A DNA stretch of 64,000 bases, taken from Schmidtea nova. Lineage: Eukaryota. The notes under the pieces were generated by a model. It ran no database searches and was not told the origin of the DNA. It saw only the letters and a list, made by a program, of their open reading frames with translations. The stretch covers positions 279,992,001-280,056,000 of the forward strand of contig CM097882.1 of NCBI GenBank assembly GCA_044892505.1. Direction: 5' to 3'. This document shows, piece after piece, positions 2,761-61,496 of this stretch. Position 1 is the stretch's first letter, and each line of letters begins with the position of its first letter. The translations under genes were made by a program, and so were the position numbers.

Positions 2761-2926
2761 ATCTATTATAAATTTCTTGCGTTTGGGATTTCAAATCAAT
2801 TATAAATTGCTTGCGTTTGGATTTCAAATTAGTTGTAAATTGCTTGCGTTTTGATTTCAAATTTATTGTAAATTGCTTAAGTTTTGATTTCAAATTTATT
2901 GTAATTGCTTGCGTTTTTAATTTCAA
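2732..2926. repeat. Minisatellite, unit of about 33 bp, about 6 copies
   Basis: Repeating T(T/G)TAAATT(T/G)CTTGCGTTT(G/T)GATTTCAAAT units. Confidence 0.85.
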
Positions 2927-5900: not shown

Positions 5901-6213
5901 AGATACACATACAAAGATTGAAAGACTCAGACAGGCAAACGAAGAGTTACGAGATGAGTTACAGGGCACTCATAGAATTAAATAATTCTAAGAAAGGGAT
6001 AAATCTCGATTTCATTCAGAATAGCTAGCGGAAAGAATTAGGCCCATCATTCTAGAGAAGTGGCGCGATCTACATACCTCAAATCGAAAGAAAGATTCCA
6101 AAAACCTTGTCGAAAAAATGAAAGAGTCAAAAATAAAAAGTATTGCAAAAATTCATAGAACTTTAAGGATTTAATTTTAAAAAATATTAAAAATATTTAA
6201 TGTTTTATCCTTA

Positions 6214-32789: not shown

Positions 32790-32822
32790 CTTTATTTTTA
32801 TAACATTTCAATAACAATAACG

Positions 32823-34789: not shown

Positions 34790-34847
34790 CCATTTGTTCC
34801 TTTGTATTAGTTCCGGTAAGAATTTGAACCATTTCCACCACTAATGT

Positions 34848-35762
34848 TTAATAATTTCTTCGTCTGTGTATTTGTTTTTTTTCGAATATTTTAGATATAT
34901 CATTCAAATCGGTCTGGTCCATCCATCTTTTAATTATATCTTTCGCGTACTTCTGATATTTTTGAGAATTATTAATATACCTATCTAGTTCTTTGTGCTC
35001 ATCTAAATACCTAGAATGTAGTGTATACTGGTCTTGTTTATTATATAGAAATAACTCCCGCAAGTCTACTTTTTTATATAGTTCCTCTAGGTGAAAAACA
35101 TCAATTAAATCTTCAGAATTTACATAATCAAAAAAAGCTTTCTCGTCTTTACTATATTCAAACATAAATTCTTTAGTACTGTTATATTTGCCTCCTTTTA
35201 CATTTTGTAAAGCTATCATAATAATAACACTAACAGTCTGCCCTATAACTGCACCTCGACGAGTTGCAAAACGTCCCAATGAATTGAAGGTAGGTTTACC
35301 GTAATTACGTAATGCATAATTCAAGGTTCGACTATTAAATTTCCAATTTAGGCCCATAGTATTAAATACGTCACTTCTGATGGACTTTAAACTGTTACTC
35401 ATTAATAAATCATGATATGGGTTAGACCTTAATTTATTTTCCAGCGAACTAATACTTTTTATAATTGTAGGTTTAATAGTAGTGCTATAAATTTTATACA
35501 TAAATGTTAAAGAATCATAATACCAATTCTGATCAACTTTTTTAATATCCCTACCACCACTTAAGAACTTAACAATAGACGTTGAATATTCTAAATTTTG
35601 AACATAATTCTTCATGGCCCTTCGTTCCTCTGGTGTAAGAGTATGACTATTTATTAAACCTAATTTACTTTCTATGACATTCTTTAACTCAAAAACAAAT
35701 ATAATTAAATTACCAATTACTTCTTCTTCTGTGGTTTTCCCTCTAAGATATCTAATATTCAT
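34848..35762 (-). CDS. Orphan 304-aa viral ORF upstream of the capsid gene
   Basis: Uninterrupted ATG-to-stop ORF inside the ITR-bounded element, with a basic C-terminus (KKQIHRRRNY). No motif recognised. Confidence 0.7.
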   Translation of the reverse strand: MNIRYLRGKTTEEEVIGNLIIFVFELKNVIESKLGLINSHTLTPEERRAMKNYVQNLEYSTSIVKFLSGGRDIKKVDQNWYYDSLTFMYKIYSTTIKPTIIKSISSLENKLRSNPYHDLLMSNSLKSIRSDVFNTMGLNWKFNSRTLNYALRNYGKPTFNSLGRFATRRGAVIGQTVSVIIMIALQNVKGGKYNSTKEFMFEYSKDEKAFFDYVNSEDLIDVFHLEELYKKVDLRELFLYNKQDQYTLHSRYLDEHKELDRYINNSQKYQKYAKDIIKRWMDQTDLNDISKIFEKKQIHRRRNY

Positions 35763-35780
35763 TATAAGGTCTTTGTCACT

Positions 35781-36344
35781 ATGGAACCTTTTGGTCCGAT
35801 CAGAAGTTTGACCATATATTATGTCTTGTTAAAGGCACTGTTCATCAATTTGATTGATAGGTATCGAAAATTTTTTAGGTTTATTATTTTTATCCAGTCT
35901 GATATCTGTACTAGTTCCAGGACCACAAAAGAGGGACAAGATCGGTGCACAGTGTGCATAGTATTCCGCAACGCACTTCGCACTCTACGATCGATGAAGT
36001 CAGAGAGAACCTTGACAAGTATAGGGAAATGGAAGCTTGTCAATTGGTGGCAAAGATTAATAATGACTCTGCTGCCGCAATGGGAAATATGTCAAACAAT
36101 ACGAACGATAATATTTTCCGAAAACGTTTCTACCTATGGTCCTTTAATATCGGCGTCTCCTTTTTTAAGCAACACGAAGAAATACTTCGAGGATTATGGA
36201 GTGATCCTAAGATCACAAAGTTCTTTACAGGACAGGAGGAGATTGGGGATAATGGTTTCCGACATCTGCAATGTATGCTGGAGACTGTCAGAAATTATAC
36301 AATCTCGGCTGTCCGAGCCCAGTTCAAAATACCTTTGTCAGTAG
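35781..36344 (+). CDS. Possible overlapping accessory ORF (187 aa) in an alternative frame over the Rep 5' end
   Basis: ATG-initiated and long for AT-rich DNA. Starts 18 bp from the divergent ORF at 35762. No recognised motif. Confidence 0.35.
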   Translation: MEPFGPIRSLTIYYVLLKALFINLIDRYRKFFRFIIFIQSDICTSSRTTKEGQDRCTVCIVFRNALRTLRSMKSERTLTSIGKWKLVNWWQRLIMTLLPQWEICQTIRTIIFSENVSTYGPLISASPFLSNTKKYFEDYGVILRSQSSLQDRRRLGIMVSDICNVCWRLSEIIQSRLSEPSSKYLCQ

Positions 36345-37204
36345 CATCCGGCTACTGAGCGAGCAGCAGTCTTCCAATATGCGACAAAATCAGAGACCCG
36401 ACAGCCAAATGGACTTTCAATCTTATATGGTGAACAGAGTAAGAAATTTTCTGAAAATAATTTTAAATCAGCTCTTAACTGTACATCTTATTCTGAGGCA
36501 ATACAAATTATTAAAGACAAAGAGCCTTTTCATTATATTACAAAACGGAAAGTAATAATAGAAAGTTTATTGAATGAATAGGGCAGGCCTACAATGCCTA
36601 ATTTTAATAATTTTACTATCAATCCAGTTAATATTTACGACATGCCTAGTCATGTATTTCTTGGTCCGACTGGCATTGGAAAGACAAACTTCGCATTGAG
36701 CCATTTCACATGCCCAGTTCATGCAAAACATATGCAATTACTAGGCAGAATCAGTTCAGATACAACGAAAACAGATAGCATCGTTTTTGATGATCTTTAT
36801 TTCAATAAATTTAGCTCCTCAGAATTTTTAAGCTTAGTAGATTTAGCTTTTGACAATTGCATTAATATCAAATACTCAGTAGCTATAATACCAAAATGCA
36901 TGTCTCGAATATTTTGCATCAATACATTTGATAATTTTTTCCCTGACAATATATCTCCAGAAATACAAAAAGCTATTAATAGTCGCATTGTAATTCACCA
37001 TTTTACTGAAAAGCTATATAGTGAATATATAAATGAAAATGAAGTATTTTTTATATTACTACTTAATAACCTTGTTTTTAGGTGATAGAAAATCCATACC
37101 GGAATACGAACCAGCTGTTCAGGAGTTTTCTAGAGGAAGCGGAAACAGGAGCTTCTCCAGTGTTACCTGTAGATATTGCGGACGAGCTGTTCGAATCTTC
37201 ATAG
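36029..37204 (+). pseudogene. rep: CRESS-DNA/circovirus-like Rep (HUH endonuclease plus SF3 helicase), interrupted
   Basis: Motif I FYLWSFN and motif II GQEEIGDNGFRHLQCML. After a +1 shift at about 36350, motif III VFQYATKSETR. In-frame TAG at 36579-36581, then Walker A FLGPTGIGKT, Walker B IVFDD, IKY..AIIP..RIFCIN and AINSR. A possible 38-nt intron (37044-37081) adds an acidic tail ending at TAG 37202-37204. Confidence 0.85.
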
Positions 37205-37288
37205 GAGTCTGTGACACTACATTTTAATTTGAACAGTTAACATTGTGATTTGTTTCGTATTAACTTAGTTCTCAATTAAACATTGTTG

Positions 37289-37539
37289 TTGAATTCATTT
37301 ATTTAATATTGATTCATTACTTGAGTAATGTATAACTTTTTATACAGAGTAAGCTACTGTTACTTAACTTAATATAAAGATATTTGGATAATGACTTGAG
37401 TAAATATTTTCATTTAAAGGCTACCTAAGCTAGCTGCGGTCGGTTGGGTTTCAGTAAACTTGTAAGGGGGGTACAGGGGGGGGCACGGATGTTTCTATGC
37501 ACGCCCATGGGCTATATAGTGCTATATAGTGAGCCATGG
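37289..37539 (-). repeat. Right ITR, truncated and rearranged within the hairpin
   Basis: Reverse complement of the left inner region and stem (few mismatches), then GCACGCCCATGGGC-TATATAGTGC-TATATAGTGAGCCATGG, broken at 37539. Confidence 0.92.
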
Positions 37540-42100: not shown

Positions 42101-43635
42101 ACGGTATCTAACCTTGAATTTCTGTGGTTACAAGTTTTTTATTAACTTTTCCATTGTTATCCTATGAGATATACTCGTGAACGCGTGACTGGACACATTC
42201 ACATTTGTTGGTGTATGGGTTGTTAAAAATGTTGGGCCGAGGAAATCGAACATAAATTTTGTTTGAATTTATCAAAAATTAAATACATACAAAAGGGAAC
42301 AAGATTAAGAAACGCACGATAAAACATTACGCAGTAAGATAAAGCAAATCAAACTAAAACAGTAAAGTAAAATAGTAATCATACGAAACGCATTCTATAA
42401 GTTGGTGGAGATAGGGCTTTAATGATAGAAAAGAGGCATCTCAAAAGAGAGCCCACAATTTAAGTGGAGGTTGCATTTACATATGAAGGACCGCATGAGA
42501 ATCGAATGGGGAAGATTATTGCTTGTAGAAAAATAAAGAAACGCATGATCAAAGAATAAAATTGATATCAGAATAAAGAAAATAATTTATTAGAAATTAT
42601 AGAAAAAATCTCTATTGAAATATCGGAAAATAACAGAGATAGAGTAAAAATTAAATTAAATTTGATTGTTTTAATCAATCAATTAATGTACAAAAACAAT
42701 GGATACACACATAATTTAACGGAATTAAAAACAAATATTTTAGAAAATAAATAAAGTGAATTATAAAATTAAATTTGCAAAAAATAAATAAAACTCACTT
42801 ATTAAAAATTAATAAGTAAATTTAATTGTTAAAATAATTATTTAAATAATAACATATGTGAGCGTCAGTAAATATAGTATAAATAGACGCTAAAAATCAC
42901 AATTGAGTTCTAGTTAATTAGTTTGTTAGAGGTAACATTAATTTTTCAATTAATTTCGTTTTGGTCAGCCAGTCGTGTGGATGAGTATGTTTTATTTTGT
43001 TTGTATTGAGAATTTGTAATGTTCATTGATAATTTGAATTAGATTTTTGATTTGGTTATGTTTATTCATAGTTTGTTGTTATTTTGTTTAATTGTAAGTT
43101 TTTATGACATTTAATAAATATTTTGAATTGAAATTTCATATTCTGTTTTTTGGATAAACCGTCATAACATCCGGGGGAAAATTTATAAGATTAAGTCCTT
43201 GGGGTCTCACAACCCATATGGCGGAAATAGGTCTCTCGTCCTAACCCCTTTGGGTGTCAGGAAATGCGGCGACTTTGAACCAAATCTGGGCGGAAGAACA
43301 AGGGATTACAAATGAGTATTCATCATTTTGGTGAATTATTTTTGCATGAATATAAGTAGTAAGAAACGTTTTAGGAATTGATATATAACTTTTTGAGAAT
43401 GAATAAAGTTAGATATTTAATAGCCGGTGGTAATAGATAATTAAGATTTAATAAAAGGGATAGAAATGAAAAGTAATCAGATGCGTAAGTCCTTCTATTG
43501 GTAGCAAGAACCCAAAAGATAGAATATAGTGAGGAGTAGTTTCGGCAACAGAGCTCACCTGCTTACTAGATTTTCGCCATCGTGTACAGTACCAATATAC
43601 TTACTTTGGGGAATAACTATGAGTACCCGAGTGTG

Positions 43636-44094
43636 AGTAGTTAGTTAGTGGCTCCCCAACCCACTGGCTCCCCAACACAACCCCCCCTAGAAAAAAGTGG
43701 GTTGGGGAGCCACTATGTTTTTTCGTCGATCTTTTGTATAGGAAAATTTTCGTCGATCTTTTGTACAGGTGGGTTGGGGAGCCACTATGTTTTTGGGTCG
43801 ATCTTTTGTATAGGAAATTTTTGTCAATCTTTTGAATAGGATTTTCTACTCCGAAATTTTTTTCTCGGGCAAAAAGGGACTCTGAAATTTTGTACAGTGA
43901 TTTTTGATCTGGTATTTTTGAATAGGATTTTTGTTCTGGTTATTTTGAATAGAGAATTTTATGTCGGTCTTTTGTATAGGAAAATTTTTGTCGATCTTTT
44001 GTATAGGATCCTTTTTGTCAGTCGAGGCATATGGCTAGAGAAACTCATCGATAAAGTATAAAAACGAGATATTAACCTGGAGTTTTATTTTCCT
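43636..44094 (+). repeat. Polinton left TIR
   Basis: Inverted match to 56310-56821. Contains GGGTTGGGGAGCCAC and about 27-bp GTCGATCTTTTGTATAGGAAAATTTT subrepeats. Confidence 0.93.
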
Positions 44095-45518
44095 TTTTAA
44101 GCACAGGCTCGTTGTGGGTCAGTTTGTTTTGGAACCAACCTACGCAGATGCTTCTCTCGTTTTTCCCACCAAGGATTAGCAGGAGTTACAAACTCTTTAT
44201 CGGAGTCTTTCCCCAAAAGCCAACATGCGTTTTACTGCTTTATTAGCAATTGGTTTGCCTGCACACTTTACTCAAAGTATACATAGGTAGCAATCCCTAG
44301 AGATTACTCAGTGCCTCATCACCTTTGGACCATCTATCACCTTTACTTACACTTGGTAAACTTCCTCTCTTTGTACTCGAGTCAGCTTATTAGTGTCGAA
44401 GTGATAGATTAATGCTAAATCGAATCATAGTGGCGAGCCACAAAATCAACGACCAACATTCAACTTGCACGACAGATCAACGGATTCTTTAGAGGACAAA
44501 AGATACTTGTGGTATCCGGCTCCCCCCTGCGCTGCCCCCACCACAGGTACGTTATTAAGGCAATCGTATTACCGGCCGCGTTGACGCATGTAAACCCACT
44601 CAGCAAGCCGAGTGGTGCAGTTTGTCTTTTTATAACTGGTGGTCCTACTCCCACACTGTCTTTACAACTTAACACAAACCAGCTCCGAATATCTTGCTTT
44701 CGCTTTCATTTAAACGGTGAGACTGGCACTAAGCTGCGCTGCCATTGGTTATGATAAGTAGTCATAACTCATGTAGTCCTATTCAGCAATCTGAATAGCG
44801 TAGTTTGTCTTTTTGTAGCTGGTGGTTCTACTCCCACGCTGCCGGACAAGCATCGTACTCATCCTCATACAAACACTAATACTCTATTAAACTCGAGGCT
44901 TTGATAATGTCTTGCCTGAATCTTCAAGAGATTTATATACATGTTTGCGTCCAGTTTTCCCGGTTCATTATTATTATAAAAATAAAATAAAATAAAGTTA
45001 AAAGGATACGATTGTTCTTGCAGAGAAGATCGAATAGGCCTAAAGAATACTCAAAGTAGATGAACTTACCACAGGATCTTCTCGAATGCACGACTTGGAC
45101 CTAACTAGCGGGATTTATACTAAGGGAGTTCCACCCATTCTTGCACCCTCAGCCGATCGTGCACCCACCCTTTGAGCGAAAGAATGATCCTCTACGGACT
45201 GTCGGGAGCATTCTTCGCAGCTTCTTACTGTTGTCCCTGCAATGGGTCTCGGAAGCGGCCCCAAATCCACGAGTGAAACCTACAAAGAAATCTTTCCTTC
45301 TAAATATTTTGTAAGTAATTAATTTAATTAGATCTGCCCCCTATTTTATAATCAAGCAAACATACAGACAAACAATCAGACAACCAGAGACTAAATAAAA
45401 ACAAATAAACAATAAAATAAGAAACGAAATGTGAGGTTAGTATATAAAGTATATGGTTATTTTAATAATAAAGATAATATTATAAAACAATACTGTTATT
45501 ATATAAACATACAAACTA

Positions 45519-48500
45519 TTAGTGCCAATTCCTCCAAGCGCAATACATTCTCGCCGTCCAATTTAGTACTTTCAGAGATATGAGCATGGCATCTGACTGC
45601 GTGACACCGAATTTCTGTACGGTGTCCCATGAATCCTCGGCCCAGATACCCTGCCAGTTCAGCGTTAACGCACCGAACTCTACCGTATCTGCCCCCTGCT
45701 CAAGGACCCAGTCACGTATCTCAATCTCATCATATACCTTGGACTTTGATATATTTCGTTCTCTCAGATCTGACTTGTCACTAACAATTTGTACATCCAC
45801 GACCATAGCACGGCGGTCCTTGATAATTACTAAATCCGGTTTCCGTATAGTCTCTTTATACGGTATAACCGGTTCCACAAGGGTCTTCCACCCCTTCTTC
45901 TTCGCGATGTCAGCTGTAAAAAGCATCACTTTATTGTGTCGTTCCACTCGCATCCCATGCGAAGCAGTGCACTTTTGTGATATGTGGCTAAGACTGCAGG
46001 GTAACCCACAGCCCGCCTTACATATAGATGATGAAGTGGCGGAGCCGCCATTCATACGACTAAGTCGCGTCGGGGTACTAAAAAGGTTTCCACGAACTTT
46101 GACACTGTTAACGAAGGATCTACCTGTCATCAACTTAGTCCGGGCCTTAAGCCAGTTATGAACAAAAGGCACCTCGTCGCTTCCACACAGACCCTTCCCA
46201 TCTAGCTTTGTATACAACAAGTCTCGCATCGACTCGTAATAGGTATGTTTTTCGTACGCCAGGGAGTCACCAGTTTTAATATGCTTACTCCATTTGGCTA
46301 ACAAGTTTCTGACGACATCCTGCTCCACTAATCCGCGAATCCTTCCATCACTGCTATCGGCAAGCCTCTTCAATCTAGTTATCTTCGCAAACTTCACCTC
46401 AGCTTAGAGAGTAGGTACCCCCATTCCTCCATCTTTAACTTTGGAGTGAATGTATGAAAAGCACGTATCTTTGGGTAGATGTAGCCATTTACGAACAAGC
46501 ATCCGGGTTATCTTGTCCAGTTCATAAAGCTCCAAGTCATCAGTTTCGCCTAAAATTGCTTCGTGCAAAATGCCCGGTATAAGGAAGTTAGTTAAGACTT
46601 CCAGTTTTTGTTGTGGTTTAATAGGGGAGATAGTAATATTGTTAATGCGTTCTGTATATATTTTAGTTAAGTTATTTTTCATTTTACCCAGCGGACCAAA
46701 ATAAATGCCTAAATATTTATAAAAATCATTTGATAACAAAATGGGAAATTCCTCTTCACCATCGGCCACTCGCTCCGGAGTTATTATCCAACTGTCACTC
46801 TTCCCGTCTCTTTTGGCTACAATGGACGCCCACTTTGCAGCATTCACTGAAAGACCATTTTCACCAAGTTCTCGAAGAACAGAAGAAAGAATGTCTTGGA
46901 GTCCTTCTTTGGTCTCAGCTAGCAGGATTATATCATCAGCGTAGGCCATAATGGGATAGGTATTTCCATTCATCTTGTATCCGAGTTGGGTTTTGTAGGC
47001 TTTCTCAATCGCCAACTCAATAATATTATTAAAAAGTGCGGGTGAAAGCGGGTCCCCTTGCTTTACACCTCTTTTGAACGTAGCTGGCGTTCCATCTACA
47101 ATAGTCTCGGCGTCAGTATAGCTATTTTCTATATAATTTAATAGTAGTTTGGGGTAATGGGCTATTTTTGCCGCTCTTAAAATACTTTCATGATTGACAG
47201 AGTCAAAAGCTTTCTTCATATCAATGAAAGCCAGGGCAATATTCTTTTTATTTTTACGTGCATCAGAGAGGATAGAGTCTAGTAAAATAGTATTCTCTAA
47301 ACATCCATCGATGGGCTTAAACCCTTTTTGGGCTGAAAAACTTTTATCATAGTTTAGGGTTCGCTGAGCGAGAATTTTATTTAAAACTCTAGTTATAACT
47401 GAATTTATTGAAATAAGCCGATAATCACTTGGACTTTTTTGATTTTCGGTCTTTGGTATTAGCGTTGTTCTGGAGCTCTTTAGAACCGGAGGAAGATAAC
47501 CTAGATAAATAACCAAATTAAATAACTTTACCAATACAGACGTCGGGATCGTCCTTAGTGTTGCAGTAGTAATGCCATCAGGACCACAGGCAGTCTTCAG
47601 GTCTATTTCCTTAACTGAATTCAGAACCTCTGAATCGGTTATAGGTAAGACCATATTACTCTCCTCAGTTACAGTCTCTACAGCTCTTGTATCAGCATCT
47701 GATTCCCTTTCGAAAACCCCACGCCAATACTCACCCAGACCCGTAACTGGTTCGATACCACTCACCAAAGAATCGACCTTCCCCCCGAGTATCACTTTGG
47801 CTGCCTCACTTCTGTCTTTTTTGAATAGTTCTTGGAGAGCTCCATATGTTTTTCTTCGGAACTCTTTCTTCAGATGCTTCTTCGCATCCTTGGACGGCTT
47901 GACTAGTGGGCTAACCTTACTACGGGGTGGCTTTCCTTTGGGACGATGGCTAAAGGTTATATCATTACAATATATCTCTAGACATCTTCTTTTTTCATCA
48001 GACGCAGAAGGACCGTGGATAATATAGTCAAGGTCGCGCTCTTGACAATCATCAATACCTTCCTTCTTTGGTAGTGCGGAGAGGTATTTAATGATTGCTT
48101 CTTTGTCCGATTCATCGTGGGCGAACTGAACCTGCTGCTTGTTTTGCGATATGCAAATATTGTCGTCAGGGTTTTCCCTTAACACTTGTAATATTTTGCA
48201 ATACCTAACCGTTTTCAAGTGTGCTCTAATGGACTCCTTGGAGCGATCAGCACTAACGGTCCCTAATTTGTACATCAAAACTCCCCTATTACACTCGAGT
48301 CTCTCACATGCCATATGCACCTTAGCCATGCGGACCTTCTCCTCAACAGTCCAAATTGCGTTACGCGAGTTGATTTTATTTTTATTTATTTTATTTATCT
48401 TAGCGGCATCGTGTTTATCACGATGTTTATTACTGGTGTGTACCTCCTTCCCAATTTTAGTCGGAAAAATCGCTTCACAAAAATCACAAGCGAAAGTGTC

Positions 48501-48545
48501 GGCGGCTTCCTCTCCCTTCGTTATTGATTTTTTATTAGGTTTCAT
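45519..48545 (-). mobile_element. R2-clade non-LTR retrotransposon ORF (about 1008 aa) with one in-frame stop
   Basis: One C2H2 finger (CDFC...H....H) and a Myb domain (RNAIWTVEEK). RT motifs include QKGF...GC, AFIDMKKAFDSV, GVKQGDPLSP and YADD. TAA at 46404-46406 stays in frame with the C-terminal CxxC..HxxxxC, RHN, KPDL, VVDV and K..Y restriction-like endonuclease. Confidence 0.92.
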
Positions 48546-49021
48546 TTTTCATGGATTTGTTTTTAAGGGAGTGTTTTACAGTAGGACACCCTCCCTTGGT
48601 AATGTCTCACCGTCCTAAAATTAACCTACATAGATACCTTACCTAGTTCTTTAGTGGTGGTGGTCGTATATGATCTTATTCTTAAACATTATTATTATTT
48701 TCCTAGCATGAAAGCCCACATACAATCAGTAGTTTGTTGTATGTGGGCTTTCGTGTTAGCATGCTCCCTGTTACCAGAGCATTATTATAAAAGATATATA
48801 CAATATACAATATAACTACATATTTAAAAGTCTGTGCAAAATGCCCACATAGTACCCCTTGGGGCACTATGTGGGCAATTATACATTACAACTTTTATAC
48901 ACAAATGAGAATTTACAAATACAAATTGGTGGGGAGGACATACTGGGCCAGTCCTCTCCTTATATAGTACCAAGTTAATGACTACATATATATACTTAAA
49001 TACCTGAATACTAATTTACTT

Positions 49022-49238
49022 CAAATACCTAAAATACCTCAAATACCTAAAATACCTAAAATACCTAAAATACCTAAAATCCCTAAAATCCCTAAAATCC
49101 CTAAAATCCCTAAAATCCCTAAAATCCCTAAAATCCCTAAAATACCTAAAATACCTAAAATACCTAAAATACCTAAAATACCTAAAATACCTAAAATACC
49201 TAAAATACCTAAAATACCTAAAATACCTAAAATACCTA
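49022..49238. repeat. 9-bp tandem repeat (AAAATACCT, with an internal AAAATCCCT block), about 24 copies
   Basis: Direct reading. Confidence 0.95.
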
Positions 49239-50131
49239 GAAAAAGATATAAAATATAAATGCAATTAAATTAAATTTGAACCTGAAAATAAAATGACAAT
49301 ATGGTTAACAATTAATAAAGTTAATAAATTAAGGGTCAAGGAAAATTTTGGCGTGGCGGTGTTGGGTTAAGGGGGAGATCTTGAATCTAGTTAATACTTA
49401 TAAACTAGTCAATTCTTGTACCAACATGTTTTCGGTTGAGTAGTGGCCTACTACTCCACCGAAAACTGTCAGTCTGATCTCCCTTATCCGCCCTTACCCT
49501 AGCGGCTGGTTTGAACTTATGTAGCCCATTCACGTTTATAGTGAGAATGGTATCACTCTGATCTACCAGACCTTTACGACTACTCGTTTGATAATTTGAG
49601 TAATCGCACCCTATTTGTGCAATGCTTGCAATATTGCTATTGTTCGCTGTTCAATAGGATCTTCCCTATTAGGACAATAGAGGTGTTGTCTACCCAACTG
49701 ACAAGCAGTTATTTTGATAAGTGGGTAGTGGATTCGAGCCTGACTTGCATACGCCCCCTACCCAGTTACCCAGGTAGCATTTTAGGTCAATTAGGCGATG
49801 CACCCTAACATAATAATCATAATGATTTTCGCCATTATAACTTGAGATGGTAGGATCTTCTCTATAAGGACTATAGAGGGTCTATCTCGCCTGTTTGTGA
49901 AGAGATAGATAAATGTAAATTGCAAACACTACTATGCGTAAGCTATATGTTACCTTTTTTAAGGACAGGTATAAAGTTGACCACTACCCCACAGATCAGC
50001 CGGACATCCGACTTAGTGACCCGTGACGAACACATGGTACTCGATAGCCCTTAATGAGAGTAATGCGGCACCGAATTGTCGAAGCACCGAAGCACTCCAA
50101 TTCTTCTACCGCAGACCTAAGATCAATTGGC

Positions 50132-50770
50132 AATCAGTGGTATGTTTCGCCCACCAACTGACAAACACTTAGAATTTTAACTATATAGCTAGGCTATATA
50201 TTACAATATCATTTTATAGTGAGAATTGACACCACTTATATAACCAACATCGAGCCAACATCGAGTTTATTAAGCAACTAGGCCACTTAAAACAATTCCT
50301 TTGGTAGTGAGAATTGACATCACCGTATACAGGACCGACAATCAAGTGTCGACGACAAGACCTGCATACATCCGGGCCCTTATCAGTAATCAGCAGTATG
50401 TTTCACCCACCAACTACCAAACGTCCCGTATTTTTACTATATAGCTAGGCTATATATTACAATATCATTTTATAGTGAGAATTGCCACCACTTATATAAC
50501 CAACATCGAGCCAACATCGAGTTTATTAAGCAACTAGGCCACTTAAAACAATTCCTTTGGTAGTGAGAATTGACATCACCGTATACAGGACCGACAATCA
50601 AGTGTCGACGACAAGACCTGCATACATCCGGGCCCTTATCAGTAATCAGCAGTATGTTTCACCCACCAACTACCAAACGTCCCGTATTTTTACTATATAG
50701 CTAGGCTATATAGAACAATATCATTTTATAGTGAGAATTGCCAACACTTATATAACCAACATCGAACCAA
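50132..50770. repeat. 256-bp tandem repeat, about 2.5 copies
   Basis: AATCAGYRGTATGTTTC.CCCACC starts at 50132, 50388 and 50644. Later copies are nearly identical. Recurrent TAGTGAGAATTG motif. Confidence 0.92.
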
Positions 50771-51537
50771 TCACGATTATTACCATCACTGTACTTTATA
50801 CAACATCGACCAGATCGTTCTATCAGTTCCTCTAGTTTCAAAGGCGTCCCCGCACTACACTCGCAGAATAAGTACTAATGTATATATTCGCTGGTAGATT
50901 TAAGATCCATCATAAGAAGAAACACTGTTTTTAACAAAAGAGTGTGAGTAATTCTTAGTATAATCTCAGTACAGTCTTGCTAGTTTGGTTACTCCGGGCG
51001 TCCCACAGAGATTCTCACTAGAAGATCGGATCTTAAACTTCATGTTGCCATGAAGGTATATTTTCATATACTATCACCTTAAAAAGGCACTTTCAGACAT
51101 ATATATATTACCGAAAGTGAACCTCTCAAAACGCTACTATAGAACGTAACGATAATTTAAATCACCTCCCGAAGGAAGGATAATGAGATCAAATGACTAA
51201 TACCGAGTTTACGTTTATGTTTCCATACTTCAATATGGTTAACAGGAAGACCTCGTGAAGGCCCGTAGACTCGAACTTCTTTCTCGCGCACATATGTACT
51301 ATACCGTACTATTGTACCAGAAAGTTGTAAATCGCAAACACCCAGCCAACAATTACGGCAGATGTTATATTATATTCACCATGGCAGGTTCCAACTGTCC
51401 TTCCCTTGGTTATAGTCAGTAACCTTAGAAAATACTATGATAAATCATAGTTTACTACAACTCCGGGTATCTCACGACACCACTTTGTTAGTTATAGTTA
51501 TTTAAGTTAGACAATCGGAGATCCTAGCAAATTAGAC

Positions 51538-52006
51538 TTAGTCCGTGCCAGTTCTAAGTTGACCGTTTAGTGTACAACGACGATCATCAATCCGAAGACC
51601 AACAACCAAAGCAAAATTTGCCCATCAACCAGTTAAAAAAGTACCATCTCAACACCATTTCAAGTTGCCTCAAAACAGCATCAAAACAGCTCAATTCTAT
51701 ACCAACTGACTTCTTAACTAAGCCCATCATACCCGGTCCTTAGAGCCAATCCTTTTACCGAAGGTACGGATCTAANNNNNNNNNNNNNNNNNNNNNNNNN
51801 NNNNNNNNNNNNNNNNNNNNNNNNNNNNNNNNNNNNNNNNNNNNNNNNNNNNNNNNNNNNNNNNNNNNNNNNNNNNNNNNNNNNNNNNNNNNNNNNNNNN
51901 NNNNNNNNNNNNNNNNNNNNNNNNNNNNNNNNNNNNNNNNNNNNNNNTTATATCCGAATTATTGTTATTCAATTGATCACAATGAGATGTGTCATAAATC
52001 AATGAA
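51538..52006 (-). rRNA. 28S rDNA fragment (D7a-D8 region), pseudogenic, copy 1; contains a 172-nt N run
   Basis: The reverse complement reads TTAGATCCGTACCTTCGGTAAAAGGATTGGCTCTAAGG...AACTTAGAACTGGCACGGAC, matching conserved LSU rRNA sequence on each side of D8. Confidence 0.82.
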
Positions 52007-54914
52007 CCAATATTATGGTCATAATTATTATAATATTAGGTATTTTATATGCCCTGTATGCATAACCTCCCAACCCATTCCCTATCATTCTTTTTATGAT
52101 CAACATAAGAATCACTTAGGACAATATACATCAACTAAAAAACAAAAATTATTTAAACGACCTAATCTAAATGACATAAATTCTATTCTAAATAAAAAGA
52201 TTAAATTAAACCCTTGTACAATTGAAAAAATATATTTATCTACAAATGAACCAAATAATTCTGATGATGAATTGATGAAAGTATTGGAAGAAGCAATAGA
52301 GGAAAAGCAATTATTGGAAGCGGTCGAAGAGATTGAAGCGATGGAAGCGGTGGAAGCGGTAGAAGCGGTGGAAGAGGTGGAAGCGGTGGAAGAGGTGGAA
52401 GAGGTGGAAGCGGGCGAAAACAAAATTTTAATTGAAGCGGTGGAAGAGATTGAAGATTTTTGGAACGTAGGATTTTATCAAACTGGAGGAAGTGTTATAG
52501 AACCTCTCCCAGTCATTGAAAGCGATTTAAATGGATCGCATAGGATTTTAAAAATTAATACTAGTGATTTAAATATAAATCAAATTATTTTTCCTCAATC
52601 GTTAATTAATAAATTAATTGAAATAATTAACGAAATAGGCTATGTGAAGATACAATTTGGTATCTGTGTTGAGTTTGAAAAAGATGGAGAAATTAAAAGA
52701 AACAATATTTCCAATAGTGCAAAACCTCTGACACAGACATTTTTCGAAGAGGGAATTAAAAAATTAAATGAAAAGATTTCATCAATTACAGAATTAGGAA
52801 GTAGTTGGATTTTAAAAAGAATAACTGAAATTAGTTTTATTGTAACAAAAATTTCAAATATAAGCAGATTAGCTGGTAGAAGCTATATAAGAACACCTAA
52901 AGAATTAGCTAGAAAAAATTGTATAGTCAATGTACACAATAAAGACAATTTATGCTTTATTTACAGCATTTTGGTAATACTAAAATATGAAACATTAAAT
53001 AATCATAGAGAAAGAGTTTCGAACTATACTGAGTTTTTGACGGGCTTCGATTATGAAATATCTGAAATGCCAATGAAATTAAATAATATTAGGAAATTTG
53101 AATCAAAGAATCCCGGATTAATTATTAACGTATTGACGTATAATCCATCAACCTCATTAAATGATAATTATATTTTAAAACATCCACATTTGGATATTAT
53201 TCACAGATCAAAAATGAAAAACGGCAAAATTATAAATTTATTATTATTAAATGAAGGTGGGAAATATCACTATGCAGCCATAACAAATCTAAAGAGATTA
53301 ATGAACTGTAATCAATACTCCGATAATAATTTTAGAATAAGAAGCGACTGGTGCAGTAGATGTTTGAATGGTTTCCCAAATAAATTATCATTGGAAAAAC
53401 ATGAAAATCTTTGTAGAAAAAATCAACTAGGAACTACATTATATACTGTCCCAGAAAATAAAATGTTAAAATTTACAGATTGGTCAAAAACTGTTACCCC
53501 ACCATTTGTAATTTATGCAGATTTTGAATCCATTTTACCAAAGGATGATGTATATTATCAGAAACACTTACCTATTTCTGCGGGGCTTTTGTTAATAAAT
53601 AATTTTGATGGGTCAAAATCTTATCAACAATTTATTGGATTAAATTGTGTAGAAGATTTTTTAATAGCGGTTGAAGAAATAGCTTTATTTAAAGTTCTTC
53701 CATATTACAATAAAAATGGTAATACTAAAATGAATAGATTGACTGAAATTGAAGAGGATCAATTTAAAAATGAAACCACTTGTTACCTTTGTATGAAAAA
53801 TATCGTAGATCCTGTAAGAGACCACGACCATTTCACTGGGAAATATTTAGGTGCGGCATGTCAAACATGTAATATTAATAGAAAAATAAACAAAACTTTA
53901 CCAATAGTTTTTCATAATTTGAAAGGATACGATTTGCACCTTATTCTTAAATATGGAATAAATAAATTTAAAAATTGGTCATTGAGTTGTATACCAATTA
54001 CATCTGAAAAATTTATATCGCTTATAGTTCATGTTGACAAAATTAGTTTAAGATTTATTGATTCTTACCAGTTTGTGAATGATTCTTTGGCCAAGGCAGT
54101 AAAAACTTTGAATTCTTTACCATTGACAAATTCAGTTTTTGATGGAACTATAGTTTCTGAAAAGGGTATATTTCCACATAGCTTTGCAACAAGCTTAGAA
54201 GTTCTTGAAAACACTTATGAATTGCCACCTATTTGGGAAGGTGTTACAGACGATGAGTATCTTAAGGCTCAACTTATTTGGACTGAAACAAAATGTGTTA
54301 ATCTTTTAGATTATATGTCGATTTACTTAAAACTTGACTGCTTTCTTTTGGCAGATTTCTTTCAACAATTTCGTTTGAAATCTTTAGCTCATAATAAATT
54401 AGAACCATTAAATTACTTCGGTATTCCTGGAATGTCTTGGTCGTCTTCTTTAATGTCTTTAGATGAACCAATAGAATTAATTACTGAAAATGAAATGTTT
54501 AGCTTTTATGAGGGTGGAATTCGAGGAGGGTTGACTTTTGTAAATAAACATTTTGTAAAAACTGATGAAAACACCGATTTATTATATATTGATATTAATA
54601 ATCTTTACGGATGGGCGTTGAGCCAAGCTTTACCGTGTGGTGAATTTAGTTGGGTGTCAGATAATTTAGATAAAATTTTACTTGATTGTGTTAATCTTGA
54701 TCTTGAATCTTTGTCTTATGGTTACACTTTAGAGGTAGATTTGGAAATACCAACTGAAATCCACGACACTTTAGATGATTTCCCAGTTGCAGCTGAGAAA
54801 ATGAAACCTAGAGGATCTAAAGTAGAAAAATTATTACTGACACATTACCCTAAAAAGAACTATGTAATTCATTGGCGTTTATTAAAATTATTGATTAAAT
54901 TTATTGATTATTAA
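51987..54914 (+). pseudogene. Protein-primed family B DNA polymerase (Polinton-type), 3'-truncated
   Basis: Exo I YADFES, DHDHFTGKYLGAAC..CN, Exo II FHNLKGYD, RFIDS, Exo III YLKLDC..LAD, GGIRGG and pol motif A YIDINNLYGWALSQALP. Ends at HWRLL, before motifs B (KxxxNxxxGK) and C (DTDS). The first 7 codons come from the rDNA copy. Confidence 0.92.
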
Positions 54915-54916
54915 AA

Positions 54917-55384
54917 TTCATTGATTTATGACACATCTCATTGTGATCAATTGAATAACAATAATTCGGATATAANNNNNNNNNNNNNNNNNNNNNNNNN
55001 NNNNNNNNNNNNNNNNNNNNNNNNNNNNNNNNNNNNNNNNNNNNNNNNNNNNNNNNNNNNNNNNNNNNNNNNNNNNNNNNNNNNNNNNNNNNNNNNNNNN
55101 NNNNNNNNNNNNNNNNNNNNNNNNNNNNNNNNNNNNNNNNNNNNNNNTTAGATCCGTACCTTCGGTAAAAGGATTGGCTCTAAGGACCGGGTATGATGGG
55201 CTTAGTTAAGAAGTCAGTTGGTATAGAATTGAGCTGTTTTGATGCTGTTTTGAGGCAACTTGAAATGGTGTTGAGATGGTACTTTTTAACTGGTTGATGG
55301 GCGAATTTTGCTTTGGTTGTTGGTCTTCGGATTGATGATCGTCGTTGTACACTAAACGGTCAACTTAGAACTGGCACGGACTAA
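54917..55384 (+). rRNA. 28S rDNA fragment, copy 2, inverted relative to copy 1; contains a 172-nt N run
   Basis: Differs from copy 1 by one substitution and one homopolymer indel over about 297 readable bases. Confidence 0.82.
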
Positions 55385-56309
55385 TTCGATCTGGACCTCA
55401 AATAAAATGATTGGCTCTAGAGACGTGCCAATGTGGATTTACAGGTTTAACGGATCTGTAATGAACCTATGCGTCAATCTAGAAGTGGTTCGGATTAGTT
55501 AATTTGATTGTATAGTAAAACTGCAAGGGACCCAGTGAGCCTGAGTGGTTAGAGCTATAATATCCCTTTTAATGTCTTATGCGTCTCTTTGGACGCTATC
55601 TTCTCATGGGGCTCCGGATATTATAGTATGTTCTTTGGCTACGGGAATTAGCTCTAGAATAGCAATCAGATTTTTGCCAAAATGTGTCTCTAATGTATCC
55701 GACATCTGCCGACTTCTTGTTGGCCAGATATTTGCAGTGATACCGCTCTTGGCACATTTAAGTACGGTATAGTACTGTTGGTGCACGAAGAGAAATCGCA
55801 ATTACGGGCCTCCACGGGGTGCTTCCTGGTAACCATAATGTGTATGGGACAGAAGACGTATGCGGTGGTGTATTAGTTTAGGTTGAAAGGTCTAAAGGGA
55901 AACCTTAGTCTAAGATTGGACAATTTGAATTAATGCATTTCTGGTGGGTCAACGTGCTCACCGAGACAGATATCGACAGTCTTGTTGATAGTATCCATGA
56001 ACGGGGAGAGGTCGTAACCATTCCTAGACTCCTCGATGGTATCTAAGGGGGTGGGTTGGCTTCTTCCAACTTTTTGGGTGTGAGACACTTGGTGGTCCTT
56101 CGGGGCTGCCCTTTTTATGTGTATCACTATGAGTAAAAGTGTGCAAGGCTGAACTGAGTGTACATAGTACGGAGAAAAACCGGGTGTACATTTGGGTTAA
56201 ACTCTGATAAGGGAGGATCCCTGCCAAAATTGGGTGGGAAAAACGGGTGAAGCATCCAACTCAACTCCGTACCTATAAGGACGGTCTGACGCGGAGCCTG
56301 CGCTTTAAC

Positions 56310-56821
56310 AGGAAAATAAAACTCCAGGTTAATAGCTCGTTTTACTTTATCACATGAGTTTCTCTAGCCATATGCCTCCACTGACAAAAATGATCCTATA
56401 CAAAAGATCGACAAAAATTTTCCTATACAAAAGACCGACATAAAATTCTCTATTCAAAATAACCAGAACAAAAATCCTATTCAAAAATACCAGATCAAAA
56501 ATCACTGTACAAAATTTCAGAGTCCCTTTTTGCCCGAGAAAAAAATCTCGGAGTAGAAAATCCTATTCAAAAGATTGACAAAAATTTCCTATACAAAAGA
56601 TCGACCCAAAAACATAGTGGCTCCCCAACCCACCTGTACAAAAGACCGACAAAATTTTCCTATACAAAAGACCGACAAAAATTTTCCTATACAAAAGATC
56701 GACGAAAATTTTCCTATACAAAAGATCGACGAAAAAACATAGTGGCTCCCCAACCCACTTTTTTTCTAGGGGGGGGTTGGGTTGGGGAGCCAGTGGGTTG
56801 GGGAGCCACTAACTACCTACT
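56310..56821 (-). repeat. Polinton right TIR
   Basis: Inverted match to 43636-44094 with two extra subrepeat copies. Confidence 0.93.
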
Positions 56822-59430
56822 AGTGTGGTACATTGATATTTATGTTGCAGTATGGGTTTTATTAACCCCTAGAAATCGTTAATAGTTTTTATAACAACAC
56901 CCATACCTCCCAGTAGATTGTAAAGATTTGCATACAAATAAAGTTTTACCACTTCCGCTACGTTCTACTATTTGATAAACCATGTAACTTCTATATTCCA
57001 TTTTTATTTATTTAATTATTATTGTTTATATTTGTTTAATAATTCAAAAATATTTAGCAACATCAATTATGAAGGTGCATGTTTAGTTTCTAGAATTATT
57101 TTTCCAAACGGAAAACCTAAACAGGTAGAAGATAGAAACAGTAATTATTGCATTTTATCATTCAGATCTCGCAAGTATCGAGTGTTGGGCTAAAACTGAA
57201 AATTGTTTAAATGAATCGGTAACACAACACGTAGAGAGCGCGCAAGAAGTTCATTTAAAATTCTTTGAGTCAAAACATCAAATAAAACATTATAATCACA
57301 AAACACCGAAATAATTAAATTAAACATGTACAAAAGTGCAATAAGCATACACGTGAAAACACATATATAACATAAAAACATCAATTATGTAACAAAATTA
57401 CAAACTAAGACTAATTAAAATATTTTTAGAGGGAAAACTTCGATTTTTATCGTAAAAATTCATAAAAATATGAAAGAAAATTATTTTAGTTAAAATTTAG
57501 CAAAGAAAATTAAATTAGGAAAAAATTTGATTAAAAAGAAAAGTTTTGGATTAAAAATAAACTATTTTAAGTTTTAGAAAAATTTGATGCAAAAATATTA
57601 ATTTGATTTTGCGTAAAATTGTTAAAATTAATTTTAGAAAAATCGAAAATTTCTTCTAGAACAATTTGTTTTACTACATCAATGGAAACAACAAACAGGA
57701 TATTATATAAATACCGCCATCAAAATGGAAGTCATTCAGAATTTGCTCGAAAATTTTGAGAAATTTCTGCGAAAGTGAAATTTTGGAAAATTTTAAAAAA
57801 ACTAACTGGGAAAAACTAATAAAGGCGAACCCATCGAAATGTTCCAGAAACAATCAATCAGTTTCCAACTGACAGAATCCAAAAGTGTTGCGAAAAATCC
57901 CAAGACACGCATGTAAAGATCATGAACTTTTTTCTTTTATGCAGGCTAGCGAGTCATGCCCTCGTTACCCTGCAGTAGGTTTTTTAATTGACCTTTCGAT
58001 TGGAATATTGCTAATTCGTTACTGTACGATTTAATATGTTATTCATGATTTTTTTGGAAATTATAATTTTTCTATTTTAAATACTCATTTTTATTTTTGT
58101 CACATTTCTAATAAACTGATATCATTTTATTGTTATTTATTTATTTAATCATATGTATATCTATATGTTTTTATTAAAACCACTTCCATACATTCTGACA
58201 TGAGTCCGGCCTCGAGCTGAACTGATGGAAGTAGCCTATGTGGATTGCTATTCAGTTACTCACTTGCCAGCCCATATTTCCGCTATAGGTGAAGCCCACA
58301 CATCCATGATCACTTCACCCCATTCATCTTTGTTGGGAAACAGTGGCTTGCCCAAGGGCAAGGATTTTTAAATTAATTTAACATCTAGAATTCTATTACA
58401 TTTTTATTAAAGTGCGATACGGTATTCAAAGACGCAAATGAATATTTTATTTATAGTATTGTATTTATATTTATTAATATCAAAGTGCCTTGCTCTCACA
58501 AATACAAGAAAATTCGGACATAATAAAAATAAATCGAAAATATGCATTCATCTCTTAAATCGCCTTCGCTCAATGAACGTCGTCTTTACTTCATTATGAA
58601 GGAAATCGCAAAGTCTCTCAAGAAGTCGAATGAATTAAAAGCTCTTTAATAGCAACTCAGTGCGTAATAATAATGTCTATATTGTATTATACTCTCAGAT
58701 TTTACTCGATGTTTTGCACCATAATTTTATGTATGTAATGATGTTTCATGTGTGTTTTGCACTATAATGTGATGATATTTTATGTGTGTTTGTACTATAG
58801 TGTAAGAATAGTTTGTGTATGTGTATGTTTGTACTGGATATTTTCTTTTTCCTGAATTCTGATATAAGGTTACAACAAATTAAGATTTATTCTTGCTATA
58901 TATTAAATAAAATTTAATTTCAAATTTAATTTCAAATTATTTTTATTTATTAATTTTCAGTAATTTTAAATCTGTTTTGTCATTGTTTTCAAAAAATCCA
59001 ACCGGAAAATCAATGGGTGCCATGAAAGATGATGTTATCATGTATGGTGACATCAAATGGTGATGTATATTTTGATGGAAATAAATCAAATGCTAAATTT
59101 CCACCTAGAGTAAAAATTATTGGATTCACATCTAATATGGTGGAACATATGGATTTTTTATATTATGATAAATTAGTTAACAATCAAGATGTTCAAAATG
59201 CTTTAAAATATATGGTCGCATGTTCAAAACAAGAAATCATGGTTTAATAGTAACAGACAGCAAGGTTATGAAAATGAAAATTTAACTATTAAAATGAATG
59301 AAATAAAAGAAATAAAAGAAGTCTTTATTATTCCAGAAATACATTATCCAAATTAAAAAAAGATTTATGAGCAATGTTTTATTGAAAACGAGCAAAGTTT
59401 TATTGAAAACGAGCAAAGCTTTGGCTACAC

Positions 59431-61496
59431 CAGGCCTGGCCAACCCAAATCGCTCTGCGGGCCAACTTTTTTTTCCAAAATTTTATGCGGGCTATATAAT
59501 ATACGAAAACCCCAATTTTTATTGAAATATTTGTTTGAATTATTTCAGTACATAGATTTATTTGAACCATTCCAAGAAAAACATCTATTTTTATATTTAC
59601 ACTAGATTTTTTTTATTGTTTCAAGAACATTCTTATTGAACCATTTATTTTTATTATTTCACTACACTTAAGAATAATATTTATTAATGAGATGTTTGCT
59701 TTTCTTTGCGATCGCTCAATGCTTTTAAATCTACATCAATTTGGGTAGTTGCACATCGTAATTGGCTTTCAAGGTTTTCGTCTGTTAATGAAGCGCGAAA
59801 TTTACTTTTGGTAAATTTCATTTTTGAAAAAAAGGCTTCACAAACATATGTAGATCCGAAGGCGCTTACAATTTTTTGAGCGAATAATCTTAAGTTAGGA
59901 TACCTTTCTGCTGTTATATACGTGTTGTAGAATTAGATTTTTGATGTCGTCTTATGAACCTGCTTCAACTCATTGTTACACTGCAAATTAATTATTTCCA
60001 TCTGTAAAGCTTCTGGAACAGTGAAAGCGTCAACTTGAAATGGTGAAGAAAATATCTCAAACGTTTTGTCATATTTTGTAAGTTCTGAGAAACGACGAGT
60101 AAATGCAGCTGAAAGTTTTATAATTTCATCAGCGTACTTTGCAAAATTAATAGCTTGACTGCTATTAAATTCTTTTAATAATGGAAAATGGTGAAGATTG
60201 TTATTTCAAAGTTGGGACTCAAATAAAATTAGCTTGGTTTGGAATGCTTTGATATGATTACAAGCATCAATAATTAAATTATCTTGCCCCTGTAACTCCT
60301 TGTTTAGCTGGTTAATTTTTTCGGTTATATCTACTAAAAAACACAGGTCCAACAACCACATATCGTCATTTAAATTTGAAACTGGAGTTCTCTCTTCAGC
60401 CATAAAATTTTCTATTTCCACCCGTAATTCAAAAAATCTTTTTAAACATGTTCCGCGACTCAACCATCTAACTTTGGTAAAATAGACAATATCGCCGTAT
60501 TTCGAACTTAATTCGTCAAGGTATGCTCTGAACTTGCGATGCTGAAGCGCATGTGATCGAATATAGCTAACTGTTTTTATTACCACATCCATGACATGGT
60601 TCATGGACAATACCTGGGCACATAAATTTTGCTGATGTATCAAACAGTGTATTACAAATATTTCACTGGGTTTAACAGATGTAGCTTCAAGTTCATCCAT
60701 AAACAACTTTACGGTTCCTTTATTTTTACCAATCATAGCAGGCGCACCATCCGTTGTTAGTCCAGAAAGCTTCTCTAAATGTAAAGAATTACAGGATAAA
60801 CATTTTTTTATAGCGTGGAAAACATCCTCTCCTCTAGTGGTGTCTTTCAAATTTAAAAGATTTAACATTTCTTGTGTCACTCCGAAAGAATCGTTAACTC
60901 CACGAATAAATACAGCAAGTTGTGATGTATCTGAAATATCTGTACTTTCGTCGAAAGCTAGAGAATATGCTTTGAATTGTTGAATCCGCTCTCGTAAAGT
61001 CACCACTATTTCATCCGAAATATCATTAATGCGACGACAAATAGTTTGACGCGACAAACTTATGCACGAAATCATTTTATGTTTATCTGGCATAACATCT
61101 TCTATAACAGCTGCCAAACATTCTTTTACAAATTCTCCGTCCGAAAATGGTTTCATTTTCTTAGCGATTAACATTGCGACAGAGTAGCTTGCTTTAACAA
61201 TATTAGAAGGTAGTTGTAATGAAGAACTAAACATTTTCTGCTGAGATTTTAATTCGGATTTTAGCTCGGCCAATTTAATATTTCTCAATTCACTATTAAA
61301 TTTCACACACGTCGTGTTTCGTTTCATGATGTCTTTTAACATTGTATTCCTTAAAAACAGCTATTGTATCTCGGTAAATCAAACATGTTAATTTTGAGTT
61401 CTGCATTATAAAGAAATAATTTTCTTCCCAATGATCGCTGTATTTTCTGTTTTCTTCTGAAACTCTTCTTTTTTTGGAATTCATTCTAAAGGCCAT
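59431..61496 (-). mobile_element. hAT transposon (SPIN/Charlie, GTF2IRD2-like transposase), frameshifted
   Basis: Terminal CAGGCCTGGCCAAC...GCGGGCC at 59431. Pieces: KKRRVSEENRKY...W..YFF..CLI...KRHHETKH; SLAFDESTDISD, TTDGAPAM, HCLIHQ, VRWLSRG; and the C-terminal FGSTYVCEAFFSKM. The other TIR was not found. Confidence 0.88.

Follow-up and report, generated by a model that had tools for sequence, protein, structure and literature searches.

A probable deleted Polinton copy with a mirrored, R2-interrupted 28S cassette in its inverted arms in Schmidtea nova

R2 is a model rDNA-bound retrotransposon with mostly vertical inheritance. In the window, i.e., the whole 64,000-nucleotide stretch of Schmidtea nova DNA analyzed here, an R2-type element and pieces of the 28S gene are found between the ends of a Polinton-like transposon, which raises the question of how they came to be there. 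A first-pass annotation had described the element as a shell with R2 and rDNA pieces as its cargo. The explanation that we consider probable is that the copy belongs, with an internal deletion, to a Polinton subfamily present in many copies, the terminal inverted repeats (TIRs) of which contain an R2-interrupted 28S cassette.

Ends and interior of the copy

The element is flanked on both sides by the 6-bp target-site duplication (TSD) AGTGTG (43630..43635 and 56822..56827), a coincidence with a chance of about 1 in 2056 at this base composition. Its outer TIRs, at 43636..44022 (plus strand, with internal 27- and 72-nt repeats) and 56380..56821 (minus strand), are identical in 397 of 402 alignment columns with lengths 55 nt apart, and both inverted termini start with AGTAG. 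According to the cited part of PMC8097293, Polinton/Maverick TIRs end in (AGT)2 or (AG)3. The left end, AGTAGT, is a full match to (AGT)2 and the right terminus carries one mismatch. The TSD and TIRs claimed in the first-pass annotation were thus confirmed, with the one mismatch at the right terminus as a correction.

The interior contains a partial gene for a protein-primed DNA polymerase (PolB) at 52002..54900 (plus strand), which reads without interruption until it breaks off about 316 aa ahead of the point where the closest full-length homologue ends. The 5′ part spans residues 1-926 of a 1242-aa PolB at 51% identity; full-length proteins with 50-57% identity were found, many of them carrying PF03175, a domain for which the fragment itself gave no match. 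At the break joint (54879..54926) there are short local duplications with a period of 13, a trace typical of end-joining repair. No long ORF was found within the element beyond those of R2 and PolB, and none of the 19 other interior frames scanned, of 39 listed, had a Pfam match, which bears out the earlier report of a partial PolB and no integrase or virion genes. Because the integrase, ATPase, protease, and capsid genes are missing, the copy is taken to be a deleted derivative rather than an intact Polinton; it has lost the C-terminus of PolB along with every other Polinton gene. Searches of viral contigs for neighborhoods of PolB relatives and for a TIR pattern returned no match, and neither did a search with a 28S pattern. 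Two runs of 172 N (51776..51947 and 54976..55147) part PolB from both arms, so the continuity of the element across them is putative.

The R2-type elements and their 28S frame

Read inward, both arms consist of an outer TIR, a 15-bp stretch of downstream 28S, an R2-type element, upstream 28S, and a segment referred to as X, in this order. The left 15 bp (44023..44037, minus strand) match the 28S sequence that immediately follows the R2 cleavage site in 14 of 15 positions, with the native context in locus L006, and the right 15 bp (56365..56379, plus strand) in 13 of 15, the last base of the latter being given by contigs as in the left arm. This target motif has two matches in the window against 0.04 expected, a number reached by 0 of 100 shuffles. 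There is one per arm, at the 3′ end of each R2-type insert and on the correct strand, and no further motif was found at internal points of the inserts when the window was searched.

The upstream 28S pieces lie at 51535..51775 (minus strand) and, as its mirror, at 55148..55387 (plus strand). The left piece corresponds to approximately positions 1923-2127 of the LSU model and ends about 152 nt before it would reach the R2 site; both pieces match positions 1925-2120 with 72 and 70 bits, and in inverted orientation they differ by 2 mismatches and 1 gap in 241. Rfam detected them only in stretches of 300-500 nt and missed them on the whole window (gathering score) and in stretches of 1.2-14.6 kb. 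The 28S base at which the inserts start is identical in the two arms and lies 152-153 nt ahead of the R2 site (L005, L006), and none of eight global alignments revealed a significant 28S-like replacement of the missing 152 nt in either R2 end. The arm frame around the inserts is about 99% identical, and the inserts themselves are about 30% diverged. Innermost in the arms is the 59-nt segment X (51948..52006), which overlaps the PolB start codon (52002) and has a 100% identical mirror copy at 54917..54975. A 28S origin of X is not supported: a by-eye register fitted L006, but p exceeded 0.05 at five of six loci (range 0.04-0.59), and the contig depth at 51998 was 259-421 in public runs X2-X4, far under the rDNA level.

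The left R2 element would extend over 7497 bp (44038..51534, minus strand), bounded by the two 28S joints and with ends homologous to the right-arm element. Its single ORF (48548 to 45519, minus strand) encodes one CCHH finger, a Myb-like stretch, reverse transcriptase, a CCHC motif, and an RLE endonuclease, motif names that were assigned by eye, and is interrupted by one in-frame stop at 46404-46406; it is closest to R2 proteins, its best PDB match being R2-type (E 4.5e-78 and 3.6e-29). The 3′ end lies at the conserved 28S site with just 15 bp of downstream 28S after it, and the 5′ end adjoins upstream 28S, the joint lying 152 nt ahead of the site. The UTRs would be about 3.0 kb (5′) and 1.5 kb (3′) long, with tandem arrays. 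On the 5′ side of the ORF are two long hairpins (48703..48880, minus strand; fold of 352 nt, z -7.35), and 9-nt (48998..49238, 27 copies) and 256-nt (50132..50770, 2.5 copies) tandem repeats were found, so both the R2 and the repeat arrays reported earlier are present. A search of three regions for an HDV-like 5′ ribozyme gave no matches with a home-made descriptor run without positive control, and none by Rfam. An R2D-type clade is suggested by the single finger only, in line with the cited part of PMC5035012.

The right arm carries, at 55388..56364 (plus strand), a 977-bp ORF-less, SIDE-like element that opens with a decayed 28S-like duplicate and has R2-like 5′ and 3′ ends joined to each other at the R2 site; among the open reading frames listed, none is an R2 coding remnant. 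The left and right inserts share their ends at about 68%, with alignment scores of 138 and 182 against shuffle maxima of 54 and 47. In the left element the common 3′ terminal block (44038..44323, minus strand) shows 68% identity over 297 columns and 83-93% in the last 70 nt, and the 5′ block (51195..51442, minus strand) 67% over 267 columns. Folded jointly, the blocks scored better than all of 100 column shuffles and showed 5 and 6 compensatory pairs, which from two sequences are weak covariation evidence; folded singly, the blocks gave weak z-scores (-0.5 to -1.5).

Judged from these joints, R2 occupies its canonical 28S target within a Polinton inverted repeat. The two 28S fragments noted in the first-pass annotation do exist, but they are the same segment mirrored, as part of the inverted repeat, rather than separate pieces; the second R2-type element in the right arm had been missed. 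What it took for cargo is instead one mirrored cassette shared by the two arms, in which R2 occupies its usual 28S site. In the literature searched, no Polinton TIR was found to be described as holding rDNA or R2, although a similar element could be recorded in paper supplements or in Repbase.

Recurrence of the joints and competing explanations

Public contigs were taken from four runs (X1-X4), all of one study, which is possibly also the source of the assembly. The contig comparison lists 32 of 27,506 pieces and excludes 43000-50779, comprising the R2 ORF and the left TIR joint; in the region compared, 30 of 30 bins are covered in four of four runs. Of the words sampled from 43000-48990, just about half occur in the runs. 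Among the listed pieces, the 28S/left-R2 joint is bridged in two of four runs, X3 (51319-51566, depth 298) and X4 (51385-51567, depth 264). Ordinary insertions of R2 into rDNA would produce this joint as well. The X/PolB joint is bridged in X4 (51948-52132, depth 297), and, again among listed pieces, the joint between target and outer TIR is present in X4 with 39 letters to the contig end (depth 1499). Contig depth does not equal copy number; median depth is 9-14 for rare diverged contigs (X2-X4) and 4700-6600 for rDNA-type contigs, so that, relative to rare variants, the arm joints recur at a 30- to 170-fold depth. Three joint types this far above rare-variant depth point to a multi-copy subfamily rather than to debris accumulated at a single locus. 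The left-type 3′ end is marked by a gap of one base at 56353. This gap has a depth of about 360 in X3 and X4, near that of the left 5′ joint; it was seen in 0 of 500 in X2, and its depth in X1 was 5205, unlike the left 5′ block (about 1800).

No contig across the whole element, either N run, the 28S/right-insert joint, or the PolB break is among the 32 listed of 27,506 pieces. This agrees with the view that the joints are genuine but the 13-kb order was stitched by scaffolding from different repeat copies over the two N runs, so that, for example, PolB would stem from a different copy or its break would be an artifact. The equal-length N runs are mirrored around PolB, all parts are highly repeated, and R2 assemblies in repeats are often wrong, as stated in the cited part of PMC13188248. 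However, the matching TSD links both outer ends to a single insertion, and the overlap of R2, target, and TIR is just 15 bp with upstream sequence differing between the arms, so that this is not a collapsed-repeat join. The PolB break also has short local duplications such as end-joining repair leaves, and a chimera would alter the interior order with the arm cassette unaffected. We regard such a chimera as improbable.

Another explanation, also rather unlikely, is that the common 5′ and 3′ blocks have long belonged to the Polinton arm and that a separate R2 with repeats was inserted later into the left one. It would spare the left insert its otherwise required very long UTRs with tandem arrays, and it is in line with the failure of the home-made descriptor, lacking a positive control, to find a ribozyme and with the right insert being free of R2 coding remnants. 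Against it, the block limits lie exactly at R2-type 28S joints in the strand of the ORF and 28S sense, no second target motif was found at internal points, and derivatives consisting only of R2 5′ and 3′ ends are known from the cited part of PMC3414825.

That the deleted 13-kb form is itself mobile, as a non-autonomous Polinton taking its R2 along when mobilized in trans, receives only a small probability: its ends are intact, a TSD is present, and near-identical PolB contigs occur at depths of 217-518, similar to the arm joints, but the PolB break is unbridged among the 32 listed pieces of 27,506. The latter, an absence from an excerpt, is a weak point. The low depth of bin 54884-55111 caps a contig across the break at about 67 in X4 but at 211-4442 in the other runs; as missing cover is not evidence, this gives no more than a hint that the break is private to this copy. 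Least likely is the earlier proposal of accretion, with an old Polinton remnant gathering rDNA fragments and R2 after insertion, which the decay of the copy (PolB cut, a stop in R2, other genes missing) would fit but which is disfavored because the arm joints recur at the depths given above, and also by the identical 28S boundaries in both arms and an arm divergence of just about 1%.

Possible origin and relation to known systems

Under the explanation preferred here, that of a deleted member of a multi-copy subfamily, an R2-inserted 28S piece would have been captured a single time, at the inner border of one of the TIRs. Most likely it would have been cDNA from a co-transcript of 28S and R2 that ended in a short stretch of downstream 28S, or else an equivalent DNA piece. 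In the cited part of PMC2718515, R1 copies outside rDNA sometimes carry downstream 28S along. Polinton replication, by pairing and copying ends, may then have placed the cassette in both arms, and the subfamily may have multiplied via its Polinton integrase. Through homologous conversion, the arms would subsequently have swapped R2 content with R2 variants residing in rDNA, leaving a full-length R2 in some arms and the short derivative in most. In the present copy, everything between mid-PolB and the right arm would have been lost, with end-joining repair as the probable cause. If this explanation holds, capture followed by conversion has slightly better than even chances; a less probable, though still considerable, variant is that the target was empty when captured and that R2 inserted into it twice, separately. 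Polinton ends enclosing R2 and rDNA are supported, as is the earlier suggestion of a route out of rDNA, but the choice between mobilization in trans and later accretion is not, given the mirrored cassette with R2 at the 28S site.

If true, a Polinton subfamily with the R2 target and R2 in its TIRs would be an exit from rDNA with specificity kept, and a possible vehicle for horizontal transfer of R2. It would also offer natural tests of the minimum downstream 28S needed for an R2 joint, of end-to-end copying of kilobase inserts by Polinton TIRs, and of continued conversion of dispersed 28S pieces with the rDNA array. More speculatively, and with a low probability, intact capsid-encoding Polintons of this subfamily might hold a working 28S target in their TIRs into which R2 and its short derivative retrotranspose, creating a second mobile niche outside the nucleolus with twofold amplification per element and possible host crossing in virions.

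Compared with Polinton/Maverick elements, as far as the cited parts of PMC8097293 and PMC10748475 describe them, this copy has in common the (AGT)2 end, 6-bp TSD, TIRs, and protein-primed PolB, but differs in the missing integrase, ATPase, protease, and capsid genes and in arms that reach inward through a 28S/R2 cassette. In the cited part of PMC5035012, one-finger R2D-type elements have the same domain order and a 3′ end at the canonical 28S site, while fish R2s show a fixed upstream 28S loss of 110-130 bp versus 152 bp here; R2NS families likewise reside outside rDNA arrays, but they gave up target specificity, whereas here the canonical 3′ joint is retained and the target itself has moved. 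The Drosophila R2 SIDEs in the cited part of PMC3414825 are, as here, located at the R2 site, devoid of an ORF, and composed of an R2 5′ end and an R2 3′ end; the right-arm insert is set apart by its 977 bp, its approximately 30% divergence from the neighboring R2, and its location in a TIR. Pokey (PMC3849761) and SINE28 (PMC10946416), in the parts cited, are likewise transposons with rDNA-derived sequence. The former is a piggyBac element that inserts into 28S and carries IGS repeats evolving in concert with rDNA, whereas the present element is a Polinton carrying the 28S target region together with R2.

The Polinton frame and its surroundings

The element at 43636-56821 is flanked by two copies of AGTGTG, an identity expected by chance for about 1 in 2056 pairs of random 6-mers of the window's composition. 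Its left terminus is AGTAGT, while the right terminus carries one mismatch to (AGT)2, the Maverick end motif according to the available part of PMC8097293; of the intact ends and perfect TSD described in the first-pass annotation, the TSD and the left end thus hold, but the right end is imperfect. The outer TIRs differ in 5 of 402 aligned columns, with 55 further gap columns.

PolB is an open frame from its start codon, broken at residue 926 relative to a 1242-aa homologue, and its contig is bordered on each side by a 172-N run. Short duplications at the break presumably arose by end-joining. No long ORF other than R2 and PolB occurs inside the element, and no Pfam match was returned for the 19 of 39 short interior frames scanned, those left out being mostly TIR and tandem-array frames. 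The earlier inventory of R2, repeat arrays, two 28S pieces and a partial PolB, with no other Polinton genes, is therefore borne out. Lacking the full gene set, the element is a deleted Polinton derivative, Polinton-like in its working, and this copy relies on other elements because of its missing genes and a stop in its R2 frame. The closest PolB relatives (P0124-P0146, 44-58%) form a group known here solely from metagenome contigs, and named insect PolB proteins are more distant (~33-34%).

Elsewhere in the window, 31824-37495 (5.7 kb) is enclosed by inverted repeats of 190 nt (98%) and resembles an endogenous densovirus-like element. It contains an ORF similar to parvovirus NS1 (32103-32789, PF01057, E 2e-12); reading by eye adds ORFs on the opposite strand (32823-35828) and another helicase-like ORF (36582-37085). 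A PDB search with one of its ORFs gave only a match to a VP2 at E 0.8. hAT transposase remnants lie at 18447-20407 and 60206-61360 (PF05699, PF14291), and a DUF7041 ORF (562-1584, within the stretch 562-1847) adjoins a perfect palindrome with 64-bp arms (1720-1847).

Mirrored arms and their R2-type inserts

The overall picture of a Polinton shell carrying R2 and rDNA was partly confirmed and is sharpened here into two mirror-image arms; the 172-N runs around PolB had gone unmentioned. The two 28S pieces are one segment in mirror orientation (2 mismatches and 1 gap in 241), and the innermost 59-nt segment X is present as exact mirror copies on the inner side of the N runs. The left insert (inferred extent 44038-51534, 7497 bp) carries a minus-strand ORF of R2 type, interrupted by one in-frame stop, whose best solved-structure matches are R2-type proteins; it also contains tandem arrays. 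It shows the features examined for R2 membership except an HDV-like ribozyme, for which a home-made descriptor, run with no positive control, gave 0 hits in 3 regions. The right insert (55388-56364, plus strand) is 977 bp long, and no coding remnant was found in it. Both share a 5' block (left 51442->51196, right 55619->55877; 179/267, score 138 against a shuffle maximum of 54) and a 3' block (left 44323->44040, right 56077->56362; 202/297, score 182 against 47). Directly abutting both 3' blocks is a 15-mer, derived as a pattern from the metagenome 28S locus L006, that matches 28S downstream of the R2 cleavage site and that we take to be the R2-site flank; each arm has one copy on the correct strand, and these two are the only ones in the 64 kb, where 0.04 would be expected. 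Both inserts begin at the identical 28S base, 152-153 nt upstream of the R2 site (by comparison with L006 and a second 28S locus, L005). From the shared blocks, the 15-mer placement and this common start, the order in each arm is upstream 28S, R2-type element, 15 bp of downstream 28S and outer TIR.

Several further features were observed. L006 is the nearest of 6 loci to the arm 28S piece (~71% match). The right insert starts with a decayed 28S duplicate (55383-55538), 78.6% over 42 nt to the segment just upstream, its alignment giving 48/75 and a score of 37 against a shuffle maximum of 33. Directly ahead of the R2 start codon, 48549-48900 forms a strong predicted fold (z -7.35) with two near-perfect long hairpins. 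A very deep contig, with small gaps, matches 51037-51110 (depth 25000, 3231 and 4414 in public runs X1, X2 and X3); some high-copy sequence lies inside the inferred R2 5' UTR.

Arm sequence in public contigs

Four public runs (X1-X4) from one study, possibly the source of the assembly, were compared as contigs. They contain about half of the words sampled from 43000-48990 and cover 30/30 bins of 50780-57600. Joints were assessed in the latter region, outside which the R2 ORF region lies, among 32 of 27,506 pieces, and counted as bridged only with 31 letters. Among these pieces, the joint between 28S and left R2 is bridged in X3 (depth 298) and X4 (264), although ordinary R2 insertions in rDNA would yield the same joint, and that between segment X and PolB in X4 (depth 297), extending 43 letters into the N run. 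Across position 56379 an X4 contig (depth 1499) runs 39 letters to its end, the other three runs reaching 18-29 letters, below the 31-letter rule. None of the pieces listed bridges the N runs, the joint between 28S and the right insert, or the PolB break. A loose contig end before 55148 reads as conserved 28S by comparison with L006, and such contigs may be of rDNA origin. X1, X3 and X4 show the gap of the left-type 3' end at position 56353, and X2 does not.

Relative to diverged rare contigs (median depth 9-14 in X2-X4, 51 in X1), depth is 16-58x for near-identical contigs, 59-123x for the right insert and 341-738x for rDNA-type contigs, these medians resting on 2-7 listed contigs per run with one X4 28S-variant contig (depth 115) excluded. 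Because contig depth is not copy number and the runs may have supplied the assembly, we read these values as arm sequence present in many copies, with no count implied. The outer TIR (56480-56707) reaches 37,000-58,000, far deeper than the joint between R2 and TIR (700-2500, X2-X4), hinting at many related TIR families that lack the cassette. On balance we favour the view that this element is a deleted copy of a Polinton subfamily that exists in many copies and whose two TIRs each hold a 28S cassette interrupted by R2.

Proposed origin and known systems

The arm frame is ~99% identical and the inserts are ~30% apart, so the differences between the inserts did not build up where they now lie. 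Polinton replication would copy TIR content end to end. In the favoured route, a single R2-inserted 28S piece would have been captured and copied to both ends, with later exchange with other R2 variants by conversion. Capture of an empty target into which R2 inserted twice is less favoured, since an end 15 bp past the R2 site is what would be expected if 28S and R2 were transcribed together and the transcript kept a short 28S tail; such tails occur in some R1 copies beyond rDNA (PMC2718515, in the part available). R2 is described as drawing on 3' homology of a few bases (PMC12222951, PMC13580325), and its main recognition region as situated 22-34 bp upstream of the cleavage position (PMC12222951). 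As that region is lost upon insertion, arms already filled are probably not re-targeted. A bolder reading, to which we give a low probability, is that intact Polintons hold a functional R2 target and are able to carry R2 along, perhaps from one host to another.

A Polinton TIR containing an R2 target with R2 inside was not found in full-text searches of open-licence papers; nor did term look-ups show it in two versions of a recent R2 survey (PMC12247875, with no match for Polinton, and PMC13188248). Transposons with rDNA pieces are already known, as in Pokey with its rDNA IGS repeats (PMC3849761, in part) and SINE28 (PMC10946416, in part), the latter review naming neither Polinton nor Maverick. 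R2NS provides known cases of R2 beyond rDNA, through loss of specificity (excerpts of PMC5035012). The same excerpts describe fish R2s with 110-130 bp of upstream 28S lost, compared with 152-153 nt in this element, while the right insert resembles the 5'+3' SIDEs of Drosophila as presented in the available part of PMC3414825.
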